From an uncultured Clostridia bacterium (GTDB taxonomy: Bacteria > Bacillota > Clostridia > TANB77 > CAG-508): DNA of 32,000 nucleotides. Every line of letters begins with the position of its first letter. Within the stretch, counting starts at the first letter, position 1. The stretch lies in the NCBI GenBank assembly GCA_947626875.1, contig CANQTV010000005.1, positions 36,715-68,714 on the forward strand. The letters run 5' to 3'. The position numbers and the translations under genes were made by a program. Under the pieces are notes generated by a model, which saw only the letters and a program-made list of their open reading frames with translations, did not search any database and had not been told where the DNA came from. Below are positions 10,763 through 23,019 of the stretch, in pieces.

Positions 10763-10791
10763 TTGACAAATGTCGTAATCTGCTGTAAAAT
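10763..10791 (+). promoter_or_regulatory. Consensus sigma-A promoter driving the VirB4 block
   Basis: TTGACA (10763-10768), a 17-nt spacer, then TAAAAT (10786-10791). The RBS AGGAGG lies 8 nt before the ATG at 10815. Confidence 0.65.
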
Positions 10792-10814
10792 AGAGAAACA
10801 CAGGAGGTAGATAA

Positions 10815-11384
10815 ATGAAACAAAAAACAGTTCAAGAATGGATGCCAATCCAAAAAATTGATGAAGATGGCATTATTAAATTAAAAAATCAAAAAAATAT
10901 AAAACTCATGAAAATTGTCCCCATAAATTATAATTTAAAATCAGATTTAGAAAAAAAAGCAATTTTAAATGCTTACAAAATATTTTTAAAAACATGTAAT
11001 TTTAATATCCAAATTTTAATTCAAAGTAAAAAAGAAAATTTAGATTATCACATTTCAAATATTCGAAAAAATATCCAAAAAACAAAAAATCAATATTTAA
11101 AAAATATAGCACAAGAATATATAGAATATATTCAAAAAATTAATATGTCAAAAAAATCTTCAACAAAAGAATTTTATATAATAATTGAAAATGAAAAAAA
11201 TCATGAAAAAGAATTTGTTCAAACAGAAGAAATTATAAAAAATGAATTAAAAGAAAAATTTTTTAAAATCAAAGAATGTTTATCAAGATGTGGAAATTCG
11301 GTCATAGAAATTTCAAATAAAAAAGAAATCATAGAAATTTTAAATTCTTTTTTTAATACCAGAAAAAATTTATATATCAAATAA
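10815..11384 (+). CDS. VirB4/TraE-family N-terminal domain encoded as a separate 189-aa ORF
   Basis: The N-terminus KTVQEWMPIQKIDEDGIIKLKN...IVPINYNLKSDLEKKAILNAYKIFL matches my memory of the start of Tn916 Orf16-type conjugative ATPases. This is recognition only, with no search run. The ORF ends 12 nt before the VirB4 core ORF. Confidence 0.5.
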   Translation: MKQKTVQEWMPIQKIDEDGIIKLKNQKNIKLMKIVPINYNLKSDLEKKAILNAYKIFLKTCNFNIQILIQSKKENLDYHISNIRKNIQKTKNQYLKNIAQEYIEYIQKINMSKKSSTKEFYIIIENEKNHEKEFVQTEEIIKNELKEKFFKIKECLSRCGNSVIEISNKKEIIEILNSFFNTRKNLYIK

Positions 11385-11396
11385 AAAGGAGGAATA

Positions 11397-20916: not shown

Positions 20917-20961
20917 AACAACCTCCTTCCTAACAAATCAATAAACATAAAACAAAAATGG

Positions 20962-21312
20962 TTAACCAATTAAAGATTTAATAGCAGAAAGAATTAAATC
21001 AATAGCAAGAATAAAAGCATATGAAAAAAGAGAACCTTTAATTAATTTTTTACCAGTACGAATTCTATCCTCATCACCAAAACTAAACTTTTTCATAAAA
21101 ACGCCTGTACCAACAGCGACTGCAGCAGCTGGAGTAGCAATTTTCAATAACCAACTTTCAATTTTTTCAAAAGCAGAATTAATTTTTGAAACTAATTGAG
21201 GATCACCTAATGCATAAATATAATTAAAATTAAAAATAAAAATAATAGTAAGTAAGAAAATAAAACTAATAAAAAATAATATTTTCTGTTGTTTATTTTT
21301 TTTAAAATCCAT
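20962..21312 (-). CDS. VirB2/TrbC-like pilin-type protein
   Basis: 116 aa with an N-terminal signal/TM segment ending ...NYIYA|LG. Two further hydrophobic helices follow (IATPAAAVAVGTGVFM and LFSYAFILAIDLILSAI). The RBS is a strong GGAGGTG. Confidence 0.45.
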   Translation of the reverse strand: MDFKKNKQQKILFFISFIFLLTIIFIFNFNYIYALGDPQLVSKINSAFEKIESWLLKIATPAAAVAVGTGVFMKKFSFGDEDRIRTGKKLIKGSLFSYAFILAIDLILSAIKSLIG

Positions 21313-21342
21313 AATAAAAACACCTCCAAAATTAATATAAAA

Positions 21343-23019
21343 TTATTTAAAATAGGGAATCATTTTTAACTTTTTAGGCTTTAAAATCATATTTCCATCA
21401 CACAAAAAAACTAAAGCAGAAAAAGTTTCTAAATTTTGAGTAAAAAAATTTGTATCAAAAATAAAATCATTTTGTGTAAAAGTACTATAAGTTTCAGAAA
21501 TATTCGAATTTTCAGAATTAAAAGTATTTGTAATATAACTAAACTTTGTTTCTTTAGCACTTTCAGAAATACTCCTAGAAAAACGCTCTTTATCTTCTTT
21601 TCCTAATTGTTTTTGAGCTTCTTCAATTGTAAAAATATCATCTGTACGAAACCAAATTTTATTAACCAAATTTTGAACAATAACTTTAACACTTGCATCA
21701 TCTTTTAAAGTATTTTTCAAAGAAGAATAACTTTGAGTAGAAACAATATTAATACATTTTGCCTCTCGACTCATAGAAAAGAAATCAGCATCTGTTTTTG
21801 TACAAAACTTATCATATTCATCACAAACAAAAACCGACTTTTTAGGAGAACCTTTCGCCAAATTAGCCATAACTTCTGTTTGAAAATCCAATTTTAGATA
21901 AGCAGCAACCATTTTAGAAAGTAAAGCAAATTCAGAAACATTAATATTTAAAACAAGAATTTTACCTTTATCAATAATTTCAGAAAAACCATTGAAATTT
22001 AACATATTTTTAGGAGCACAAAATGTTTGGCAGACATCATAATCAGAAACAAAAGGATTTGTCATACGAGTAATTTCAGAAATTAAAATATTTTTTGTAC
22101 GAGAATCAAGTTGATGAAATTCCTTTTGAAAAAAATTCAAACTAGCATTTAATTCATAAACATCACGATTAGATAACTTTGCAGAAATAAATAAATCACG
22201 TAAAACAGATATTTTTTCTAAATAATAATCAGGTATAGTAACTAATTTATGAATTTCAGAAAAAGTTACATAACCATCATTATATAGTCTACAAAGCTTA
22301 ATACATTCAGTCAAAACTTGTTCAGCCTTATCCAGCCAATAAGATTCTGTTGAATTTTCAGAAAACAAAGTCAAAATAGTTTTCAAACGATTTGCTAAAA
22401 CTTGAGGCTTCAAATTTGGCTTATCCAAAGGATTATAAAAAACTCCATTTCCTAGGGAAATAACAATCACATCATCTTGCAGACCAAAATTTTTTGCAAC
22501 ATCACAAATGTAATGACAAAAATTGCCCTTCACATCTAAAATAAGCATTCCCATTTTCTGATTAGTATTTGTCGAATTAAAACCTATCAACTGCTTAACA
22601 AAAGGATAAATTGCAGAAGAGGTTTTACCAGAACCAATAGTTCCAGTAATTAAAAAATTTTGATATAAACCATTTTCCGGAACAAAAACTGGTAAAAAAG
22701 GTTCTAAAAAATCATTACCAATTAACAAAGAAAAGGCAGATATTTTATTAGTAGGAATAACATTAGAAACTTTAGGAAAAAATTTTCTTTGCAATTTCAG
22801 AAAAAAACGTTTATACAAAAAATGACAAAAAACAAAATCAGAAAAAATAAAAATAAAGATATATACTTTTTTCAGAATATCCCATAAATAAGGTTGCTCT
22901 GTACAAATATCAAAAGGATGAAAACCATAAGTGATAATAACTTCTTGTGCGTTATAAAGAGGATAAAAAGTAAAAAAAGTAACAATTAAAAAAATAAAAA
23001 AGAGTAAAGTAGAAAACAA
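21343..23019 (-). CDS. VirD4/TraG-type type IV coupling protein (T4CP)
   Basis: 558 aa with two N-terminal TM helices, Walker A ITGTIGSGKTSS (about 22621-22647), ILDVKGNF, ESYWLDKAEQ and Walker B VFVCDEYDKF. The start is uncertain: the TTG at 23019 lies ~25 nt from GGAGGTG, and an in-frame ATT is closer. Confidence 0.8.
   Translation of the reverse strand: MFSTLLFFIFLIVTFFTFYPLYNAQEVIITYGFHPFDICTEQPYLWDILKKVYIFIFIFSDFVFCHFLYKRFFLKLQRKFFPKVSNVIPTNKISAFSLLIGNDFLEPFLPVFVPENGLYQNFLITGTIGSGKTSSAIYPFVKQLIGFNSTNTNQKMGMLILDVKGNFCHYICDVAKNFGLQDDVIVISLGNGVFYNPLDKPNLKPQVLANRLKTILTLFSENSTESYWLDKAEQVLTECIKLCRLYNDGYVTFSEIHKLVTIPDYYLEKISVLRDLFISAKLSNRDVYELNASLNFFQKEFHQLDSRTKNILISEITRMTNPFVSDYDVCQTFCAPKNMLNFNGFSEIIDKGKILVLNINVSEFALLSKMVAAYLKLDFQTEVMANLAKGSPKKSVFVCDEYDKFCTKTDADFFSMSREAKCINIVSTQSYSSLKNTLKDDASVKVIVQNLVNKIWFRTDDIFTIEEAQKQLGKEDKERFSRSISESAKETKFSYITNTFNSENSNISETYSTFTQNDFIFDTNFFTQNLETFSALVFLCDGNMILKPKKLKMIPYFK

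Follow-up and report, generated by a model that had tools for sequence, protein, structure and literature searches.

Type IV secretion systems (T4SSs) of the Patescibacteria are chromosomal, vertically inherited and located near dnaA, dnaN, rnpA and rpmH (PMC12102498; Quinonero-Coronel et al. 2025, Microb Genom); the same paper cites such a system as essential for epibiotic growth in Ca. Southlakia epibionticum. Descriptions to date treat relaxase-less, vertically inherited and origin-adjacent T4SSs with VirB2-like pilins as a hallmark of epibiotic Patescibacteria. Here, we analyzed a stretch of 32,000 nucleotides from an uncultured Clostridia bacterium (contig CANQTV010000005.1, positions 36,715 to 68,714; hereafter referred to as the window), which carries eight T4SS-like genes in two halves (A and B) next to the replication origin. 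The position of these genes is fixed across species, and all of them are under purifying selection. On balance, we lean towards reading the locus as a functional, vertically inherited, minimal MPF-FATA T4SS, which would have been domesticated long ago, fixed at the origin and used for contact-dependent, non-conjugative export. Judged from gene content and location, the T4SS of the Patescibacteria is its closest described analogue. A search of the literature on TANB77/CAG-508 together with T4SS or VirB4, and on VirB2 in monoderm Clostridia, returned no description of this T4SS.

The eight genes of the locus

The window covers the replication-origin region of a low-GC bacterium (26% guanine-cytosine, GC). 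This context had been proposed in a preliminary description of the DNA and is borne out by the gene order mnmE-jag-yidC-yidD-rnpA / dnaA-dnaN-recF-gyrB. The eight open reading frames (ORFs) described there as uninterrupted are all present, and none is broken (Table 1). Genes within each half overlap or are closely packed, and ribosome-binding sites were found at seven of the eight; the claim of good sites on all ORFs fails for the coupling protein, whose TTG start at 23019 has no visible ribosome-binding site and is uncertain as a start codon.

The 600-aa protein of half A matched the VirB4 family CD1110 of NCBIfam (5.6e-85), P-loop_TraG of Pfam (7.9e-20) and, as the second-best VirB4 model of NCBIfam, the VirB4 family of mycoplasma integrative and conjugative elements (ICEs; 1.2e-70). 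Its sole sequence match in the PDB was the VirB4 domain 4AG5 (5e-45). Since its score (286 bits) lies under the curated CD1110 cut-off (325 bits), the protein is a VirB4 without being a CD1110 equivalog. The Walker A motif GTSGAGKS and the Walker B motif YLDEIW, previously placed at about 12150-12173 and near 12820, were confirmed, and Walker A is intact in all orthologues (86/86). The 189-aa protein encoded upstream had been counted as one of two accessory ORFs beside VirB4. While the VirB4 itself stood, this ORF turned out to be the detached VirB4 N-terminal domain: it matched the CD1110 VirB4 model (positions 1-149; 1.1e-8) and the TrsD/TraD family (1.5e-4) of NCBIfam, has a precomputed Pfam match to PF26593 (TraC-like), and corresponds to the fused part of an 849-aa VirB4 (4e-31) in L090, a relaxase-bearing related locus (Logan SRR29457793). 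Such a split between TrsD and VirB4 is natural and known from pGO1-type systems. The 189-aa gene is preceded by the ribosome-binding site AGGAGG.

Two further genes complete half A. In the orthologues of the 369-aa TadZ/CpaE-like protein (n = 31), CbiA/ParA was matched in 17 (best 1.2e-9), AAA_31 in 11 and Response_reg in four, and the family profile matched proteins of the related loci L091, L089, L090 and L093 (5e-51 to 3e-23). A Walker A motif of the form GxxxxGK[ST] is present in 18/31 orthologues and absent from the window copy and its nearest relatives, a pattern that marks a predicted shift from ATPase to pseudo-ATPase inside the lineage. The last gene of the VirB4 module encodes a 239-aa protein with a mean column identity of 71% over 35 orthologues. 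Its AlphaFold2 model, for which, as for the other model below, shallow alignments from the protein search served as input, is all-alpha with a predicted local distance difference test (pLDDT) value of 85, and no fold match was found in the PDB (best E 0.43). The family profile (A239) matched proteins encoded at the corresponding place in L087, L089, L093 and L092 (2e-48 to 6e-11). Candidate roles of the 239-aa protein are those of an adaptor, a chaperone or a substrate.

Several relatives carry AT-rich inserts of 3.8-4.7 kb (7.5-12% GC) between the TadZ-like and 239-aa genes. They are not N-masked, and the two that were inspected (L023 and L056) hold no ORF of at least 80 aa. In deeper relatives, T2SSE/T2SSF genes hold this position. 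An origin of the inserts as decayed T2SSE/T2SSF genes was rejected for want of any tblastn signal, and no T2SSE/T2SSF homologue was found in the 86 loci of the lineage (tblastn, E up to 1).

In half B, the 558-aa protein passed the Pfam cut-offs for TrwB_AAD_bind (2.6e-10; 40.2 bits, cut-off 20.5) and TraG-D_C (1.2e-7; 32.2 bits, cut-off 22) and matched the VirD4-like family CD1115 of NCBIfam (2.6e-7), in agreement with its earlier assignment as a VirD4/TraG-type coupling protein (type IV coupling protein, T4CP). It is homologous to the coupling protein of L090 (6e-106), and the motifs GTIGSGKTS and VCDEYD reported for it were recovered. Against the PDB, its profile gave weak matches only, to DptH (best, 5.9e-4) and DotL. 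Hydropathy analysis showed two N-terminal transmembrane segments and likewise agreed with the topologies claimed for the 116-aa and 291-aa proteins.

The 116-aa protein belongs to a family in which 19/19 orthologues match the Pfam family T4SS_pilin (PF18895; best 1.5e-7) and four match TrbC/VirB2; the window copy itself scored under the gathering cut-off of PF18895 (4.9e-4). The mature part of this pilin is nearly invariant between species, and L090 encodes a homologous PF18895 pilin (3e-13). For the 291-aa protein, with at least four predicted transmembrane segments, the five best PDB matches of the AlphaFold2 model (pLDDT 65) were all TrwI/VirB6 chains of the R388 T4SS (Foldseek; E 0.006-0.015, probability 0.99-1.0, TM-score 0.32-0.44). 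Weak matches to TrbL/VirB6 of Pfam were seen in 4/17 orthologues (best 0.0023), and the family profile matched a 316-aa protein of the L090 T4SS locus (1.6e-14). We therefore assign it as VirB6-like with moderate confidence.

The same moderate confidence applies to the 94-aa protein as PrgI/VirB3-like. In L091 a homologue sits just upstream of TrsD/VirB4, and in L090 one directly precedes VirB4; its profile matched residues 37-97 of a PrgI-VirB4 fusion on a Vescimonas plasmid (3.3e-5), and 3/22 orthologues matched PrgI of Pfam weakly. The gene most likely starts at ATG 20018, which has a Shine-Dalgarno sequence, while the alternative TTG at 20051 lacks one; conservation begins at MKFIFP. Profile searches of the PDB with the VirB6-like, pilin and VirB3-like families returned nothing.

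Fixed position, selection and deeper relatives

Thousands of close VirB4 relatives occur in gut metagenomes, and a scan with one genome per species found a relative encoded in at least 215 species-level genomes. Locus counts, synteny and identities refer to the best 80 of these 215, in which VirB4 is 75-93% identical to that of the window. All 80 represent uncultured Clostridia of the gut (human, rabbit, chicken, mouse and goat), with records titled Clostridia, Clostridium or Bacillota, and include Clostridium sp. CAG:343 and Clostridium sp. 27_14; the context of DnaD, DnaI-like loader and VanW genes in the window is typical of Firmicutes. Strand and gene order are as in the window in all loci. 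Upstream of half A, gyrB was present wherever the locus had room (60/60), gyrA followed the 239-aa gene in 34/39, and VirB3-, VirB6- and pilin-like genes followed DnaD in 10/10; 18 loci span the full series through the coupling protein in the same order. Hence, the position of the T4SS is fixed across species. Among the five exceptions to the gyrA linkage is L022, which is rearranged at this point and in which genes for an XRE-type regulator, an SDR protein, a DinB-type polymerase and topoisomerase I replace gyrA after half A (13659-20258).

Identity to the window was 84-98% for GyrA and GyrB, 68-89% for the pilin, 59-80% for DnaD and 54-83% for RecF, so that VirB4 ranks between gyrA/gyrB and recF. 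Ratios of non-synonymous to synonymous substitution rates (dN/dS) were calculated by the Nei-Gojobori method and are rough, because dS is probably underestimated in such AT-rich genes. They amount to 0.07-0.18 for VirB4, 0.16-0.36 for the TrsD-like gene, 0.12-0.27 for the 239-aa gene, 0.18-0.35 for the coupling protein, 0.15-0.18 for the pilin and 0.19-0.35 for the VirB6-like gene; six of the eight genes thus fall within 0.07-0.36. The TadZ-like gene reached 0.29-0.61 and the VirB3-like gene 0.61-0.75, the latter figure including the doubtful N-terminal extension. Core genes of the same region gave 0.04-0.08 (gyrB), 0.09-0.30 (recF) and 0.17-0.24 (DnaD), and VirB4 evolves at about the pace of recF and DnaD. 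Wherever a locus is long enough for judgement, none of the eight genes is broken, and all parts of the T4SS are under purifying selection.

Since the position is fixed and identity tracks that of the core genes, the T4SS is not mobile. A recent foreign origin, which the low GC content of half A (17-21%) might suggest, was rejected because of this co-divergence; weaker constraint in an AT-rich genome explains the low GC better. We also do not regard the locus as an ICE, because relaxase/oriT (origin of transfer) and integrase/att (attachment site) were looked for in the window, and a patchy, variable insertion among the related genomes, and none was seen. Of the two options left by the preliminary description, a chromosomally fixed, reduced T4SS is favoured by its presence at the same place in 80 genomes and in the distant lineage L087, whereas a rearranged ICE remnant under selection is disfavoured by the fixed site, the intact copies and the lack of mobility hallmarks in the window. 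Neither ICE boundaries in the window nor decayed copies in close relatives came to light, the latter being intact with dN/dS well under 1.

A search of 1.8 billion cluster representatives returned VirB4s of the own lineage at 77% identity, a few relatives of about 600 aa at 42-52% and long fused VirB4s at no more than 37%. In L087 (identities of 49% for VirB4, 67% for GyrB, 47% for DnaA and 46% for RecF), dnaA-dnaN-recF-gyrB is followed by two unrelated genes and TrsD-VirB4-x-x-A239-like-gyrA. The order T4CP-pilin-VirB6-VirB3-DnaD is kept on the strand opposite to that of the window, by which half B and DnaD are, as read from the gene order, inverted as a block. Because L087 shares the layout, the link between the T4SS and origin-proximal replication genes predates this deep split. 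L088 (16547-21640) encodes the same VirB4 protein as L087. There, the coupling-protein block is absent after gyrA, where genes for a phage-type integrase, a SocA_Panacea antitoxin-like protein, a RepB regulator-like protein and an N6 DNA methylase are found instead, which suggests that a mobile element was inserted at this spot in some strains.

Other relatives bring members of both halves together. L091 carries VirB6-like, VirB3-like, TrsD-like, VirB4, TadZ-like and T2SSE ATPase genes in one row, and L090 combines VirB3, VirB4, pilin, coupling-protein and VirB6 homologues in its relaxase-bearing locus; we therefore regard the two halves as one system. In L089, the order is T4CP ... VirB4-TadZ-like-T2SSE ATPase-x-A239-like ... 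gyrA, while L092 and L093 (35-36% identity) have chromosomal TrsD-VirB4-ParA-like-T2SSE-T2SSF-like-A239-like clusters with an adjoining Com_YlbF gene. The combination of a split VirB4 of about 600 aa with TadZ-like, T2SSE (TadA/VirB11-like), T2SSF-like and A239-family genes in L089, L091, L092 and L093, all in chromosomal contexts of low-GC bacteria, appears to be an undescribed hybrid of VirB4 and Tad-like genes.

In a rough neighbour-joining tree with midpoint rooting, the short split VirB4s form one clade of 22 tips with L090 outside. Plasmids yielded 366 VirB4 matches, all from Firmicutes and at no more than 35% identity, of which 253 are typed conjugative. Because the nearest mobile relative, L090, carries a relaxase, these data point to an old domestication from a conjugative element. 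Probably, the chromosome captured a conjugation-type T4SS, which at some stage became associated with Tad-like ATPase genes and was later reduced in the window lineage, and the data form a series from a relaxase-bearing element over hybrids of VirB4 and Tad-like genes to the minimal set.

The remaining features of the region are listed in Table 1. The promoter-like site upstream of half A has the top sigma-70-type score in the region (11/12 positions) and is identified by its consensus only; taken together, sites of this kind do not exceed the shuffle expectation for the region. Between the convergent gyrA and helicase-loader genes, an inverted repeat of 22 nucleotides (91% complementary, 5-nucleotide loop) is probably a bidirectional terminator.

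The helicase loader had been listed as a core gene between the halves; it is present, and this view was corrected in that the gene is split by a conserved +1 frameshift. The split lies inside the Walker A motif, at about 18020-18050. Frame 0 reads ACT GGT TTA CGG TAA (T G L R stop), whereas skipping the C yields GGT AAG ACT (G K T) and completes the motif G-x-x-G-L-G-K-T. The sequence GGTTTACGGTAA is kept in about 30 of 36 species-level relatives, and four relatives have a fused loader gene of 330-337 aa that reads GGT TTA GGT AAG without the extra C. The codon CGG was not used once in 7,820 codons of 20 window genes. The sequence has the look of programmed +1 ribosomal frameshifting that is conserved and takes place at an unused codon before a stop, and this in a replication protein that is essential. 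Frameshifting of a helicase loader was not found described in a search of the literature.

Table 1. Coordinates of the T4SS genes, the neighbouring features of the window and, in the last four lines, the AT-rich inserts of related loci (coordinates of the respective locus)
Feature	Position	Strand	Remark
mnmE, jag, yidC, yidD, rnpA		-	origin context
dnaA, dnaN, recF, gyrB	dnaA 4387; gyrB ends 10694	+	origin context
Promoter-like site (TTGACA, 17 nt, TAAAAT)	10763..10791	+	upstream of half A
Half A	10815-15011	+	four tightly packed genes between gyrB and gyrA
TrsD/TraC-like protein, 189 aa	10815..11384	+	detached VirB4 N-terminal domain; profiles, L090 fusion
VirB4-type ATPase, 600 aa	11397..13199	+	Walker A 12150-12173, Walker B 12816-12833
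TadZ/CpaE-like protein, 369 aa	13201..14310	+	receiver-like N-domain and ParA/MinD-like domain
All-helical soluble protein, 239 aa	14292..15011	+	conserved last gene of VirB4 module
gyrA	15140-17590	+	core gene between the halves; context, not part of the T4SS
Inverted repeat, 22 nt	17589-17637		between gyrA and loader
DnaC/DnaI-like helicase loader	17623-18649	-	+1 frameshift; core context, not part of the T4SS
DnaD/DnaB_2 protein	18630-19655	-	core context between the halves, not part of the T4SS
Half B	19734-23019	-	four genes beyond loader and DnaD; three tRNA genes next
PrgI/VirB3-like membrane protein, 94 aa	19734..20018	-	alternative TTG at 20051 gives 105 aa
VirB6/TrbL-like polytopic membrane protein, 291 aa	20041..20916	-	fold match, weak profile matches
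VirB2/TrbC-like pilin, 116 aa	20962..21312	-	signal peptide and two hydrophobic helices
VirD4/TraG-type coupling protein (T4CP), 558 aa	21343..23019	-	Walker A 22618-22644, Walker B 21811-21828
VanW/PG_binding_4/G5 protein	25459-27312		
AT-rich insert, L023	12905-17520		
AT-rich insert, L056	12848-16762		
AT-rich insert, L062	12900-17567		
AT-rich insert, L058	13058-16839		

Proposed function and alternatives

No ORF of the 32-kb window contains a relaxase domain, and none was found in the gene calls of the related loci L001-L006. Likewise, the window holds no integrase, no VirB8-like gene (PrgL/TraM/TcpC) and no peptidoglycan hydrolase (VirB1, TrsG or CwlT-like), and a search for att-like repeats gave nothing but AT-rich low-complexity matches. 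To this extent, the absences listed in the preliminary description hold within the 32 kb, and with no att repeats, integrase or relaxase in the window and a fixed position, an ICE was rejected here as well. The VanW/PG_binding_4/G5 protein was considered as a partner of the T4SS and discarded, being dissimilar to the G5 protein near the T4SS of L087; it is not a known hydrolase.

Drawing on established T4SS biology, we propose that the VirB3-like protein would tether the VirB4 ATPase, as a hexamer, to the membrane beside the VirB6 platform. VirB4 would then extract the VirB2 pilin from the membrane and polymerise a pilus or a short conduit across the wall, while the coupling protein would recruit a cytoplasmic substrate for export to the contacted cell. 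This substrate may be a protein, or DNA without a canonical relaxase. The TadZ-like protein, having lost its ATP-binding loop here, may act as a positioning scaffold of the machine. Contact-dependent, non-conjugative export is favoured because no relaxase accompanies the system and the coupling protein is kept under selection; we infer the non-conjugative role from this combination and from the analogous T4SS of the Patescibacteria.

Several points weigh against this proposal. Conjugation in monoderms normally depends on a hydrolase and a VirB8-like protein, neither of which is in the window, and genes for a relaxase, a VirB8-like protein and a wall hydrolase could lie outside these 32 kb. The VirB6 and VirB3 assignments draw on weak but convergent signals with Pfam matches under the cut-off. 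The raised dN/dS of the TadZ-like and VirB3-like genes (0.29-0.75) means that constraint may be relaxed on parts of the set, and since deeper relatives pair VirB4 with a T2SSE ATPase that is missing from the window lineage, the ancestral machine may have worked differently. Finally, the evidence consists of genes, sequences and predicted structures.

Among the alternatives, a working DNA-transfer machine is possible though unlikely. It would use a relaxase in trans, encoded elsewhere or by mobilisable elements, or transfer chromosomal DNA independently of a relaxase. Mycoplasma ICE systems do move chromosomal DNA without a canonical relaxase, and it is their family that provides the second-best VirB4 model (1.2e-70). 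In favour of transfer, selection maintains a VirD4-type coupling protein that has the TrwB all-alpha domain of DNA-binding type, the closest relatives beyond the chromosomal clade are conjugative, and coupling-protein and relaxase genes often lie away from virB4 (PMC12102498). However, neither the 32 kb nor the flanks in the relatives contain a relaxase, an oriT-like repeat or a DNA-processing gene, no wall hydrolase or VirB8-like gene is nearby, and a strictly fixed site in 80 species is unlike a transfer module serving mobile DNA. Import rather than transfer, by a VirB4-powered DNA-uptake (competence) machine such as Helicobacter ComB or archaeal Ced, is improbable. The conserved coupling protein in the pilin operon speaks against it, as ComB and Ced are not known to use one, and so does the lack of a comEC, comF or dprA-type gene in the window, even though the locus is chromosomal, vertically inherited and minimal with no relaxase nearby, some T4SS loci of Patescibacteria accompany comF, recG and radA (PMC12102498), and a Com_YlbF gene lies beside the cluster in the distant relatives L092 and L093.

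It is more improbable still that the halves are not one machine and that a VirB4 with a Tad-like (TadZ, TadA, TadB/C) remnant and a separate conjugative leftover both persist solely through linkage to essential replication genes. This would fit the VirB4-TadZ-T2SSE-A239 module of L089, L092 and L093, which stands without adjacent half-B genes, the missing T2SSE ATPase of the window lineage and the lost Walker A of the TadZ-like protein. Linkage alone, however, fails to preserve open reading frames in over 80 species, and the eight genes are intact in every judgeable locus with dN/dS below 1; in known T4SSs, VirB3 (here of half B) is an obligate partner of VirB4 (half A), and members of both halves share one locus in L091 and L090. 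An identity of the two proteins as P-loop ATPases of anti-phage defence or another HerA/FtsK-type system, outside the T4SSs, is effectively refuted. It was prompted by PADLOC matches of the 600-aa protein to mad8 (3.2e-21) and DndH and by DptH as the best PDB match of the coupling-protein profile (5.9e-4). Yet the PADLOC likeness is generic only, no other defence component was matched, VirB4 models score better by tens of orders of magnitude (5.6e-85), the sole PDB match of the 600-aa protein is a VirB4, and the neighbours are pilin, VirB6-like and PrgI-like proteins.

A bolder form of the export proposal is that a large, uncultured gut Clostridia order of low GC has made a conjugation machine a core, near-essential organelle of cell contact, with a VirB2 pilus or conduit and a coupling protein, in an obligately partner-dependent lifestyle. 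We consider this speculative and rather unlikely; such an organelle would have arisen either independently of the Patescibacteria or via ancestry shared with their T4SS. If true, dependence on partners, by taking from or delivering to neighbours, would account for the lack of any pure culture of the group.

Comparison with known systems

The best family models for VirB4 and the TrsD-like protein, and the CD1115 match of the coupling protein, come from MPF-FATA systems, namely trs of pGO1/pSK41 (TrsC, TrsD, TrsE, TrsK) and the conjugative transposons (CTn) of C. difficile (CD1110, CD1115). These reside on plasmids or ICEs, whereas the set described here is chromosomal. Besides a relaxase, the trs and CTn systems have VirB8-like proteins and a wall hydrolase, and a VirB2 pilin is not known from them. 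Most similar among mobile loci is L090, with homologues of VirB3 (1.5e-17), VirB4 (44% identity), VirB6 (1.6e-14), the pilin (3e-13), the coupling protein (6e-106) and the TadZ-like protein (8e-35). It differs from the window by its MOB relaxase (PF03432), MobC, M23 peptidase and ParA, by the fusion of VirB4 to the TrsD-like domain (849 aa), by its GC content (35%) and by its place outside the split-VirB4 clade.

The closest annotated plasmid VirB4 (35% identity) is encoded by Vescimonas fastidiosa pMM35_02 (NZ_AP023417, L094). Its cluster shares a small 'fimbrial protein' recognised by the pilin profile (1.3e-4), a VirB6-like protein (4e-8), a PrgI region and a VirD4 of the CD1115 type. Within the 26 kb shown, the annotation lists no relaxase, and the record carries the type non-mobilizable. 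In contrast to the window, PrgI and VirB4 are fused (942 aa), C39 peptidase and sortase-pilus genes lie nearby, and the replicon is a secondary one of 142 kb, not near oriC. The cluster occupies positions 31978-42632 of the record, which stems from a cultured member of the gut Oscillospiraceae, and the replicon also carries purine-biosynthesis genes. Vescimonas fastidiosa could offer a tractable model of such systems.

No coupling protein is known from Helicobacter ComB or archaeal Ced, and ComB has a diderm core (VirB7-10). With both, the locus shares a chromosomal, relaxase-less and VirB4-powered design with a non-conjugative role; it differs in its conserved coupling protein, and neither system was in the family set that scored here. 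Likeness to Tad/Flp systems is seen in the TadZ/CpaE architecture of the 369-aa protein, to which deeper relatives add a T2SSE ATPase and a T2SSF-like protein, whereas the window contains no TadA/CpaF ATPase, TadB/C, Flp pilin or prepilin peptidase. A Tad cluster has been reported to be conserved in TANB77, an uncultured order of gut bacteria (Kim et al. 2024, Nat Commun, PMC11680825); this is a different, Tad-type cluster, and the paper makes no mention of VirB, T4SS or conjugation.

The resemblance to the Patescibacteria is one of descriptive features. Both have a monoderm MPF-FATA VirB4 with a separate, adjacent TrsD-like protein, PrgI/VirB3 and VirB6 homologues, VirB2-like PF18895 pilins, which are unusual for monoderm T4SSs, and a chromosomal, vertically inherited location near dnaA (PMC12102498). 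In neither case is a relaxase nearby, and VirB8/VirB1, of which none is found in the window, are mostly undetected there as well (PMC12102498). In contrast, the host here is a Clostridia lineage, and TadZ-like and 239-aa helical proteins accompany VirB4. The T4CP gene adjoins those for pilin, VirB6 and VirB3, while theirs is usually far from virB4, and there is one pilin gene instead of an array (PMC12102498).

The locus represents a second case of T4SS domestication, with the same design in at least 215 gut Clostridia genomes and not confined to the Patescibacteria. It suggests contact-dependent exchange with partner cells, which can guide the culturing of these abundant gut bacteria, and if the lineage is TANB77, the conserved, surface-exposed pilin may be of interest to studies of immunotherapy response. 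As in the Patescibacteria, a system of conjugative type would have become a vertically inherited neighbour of the replication genes.

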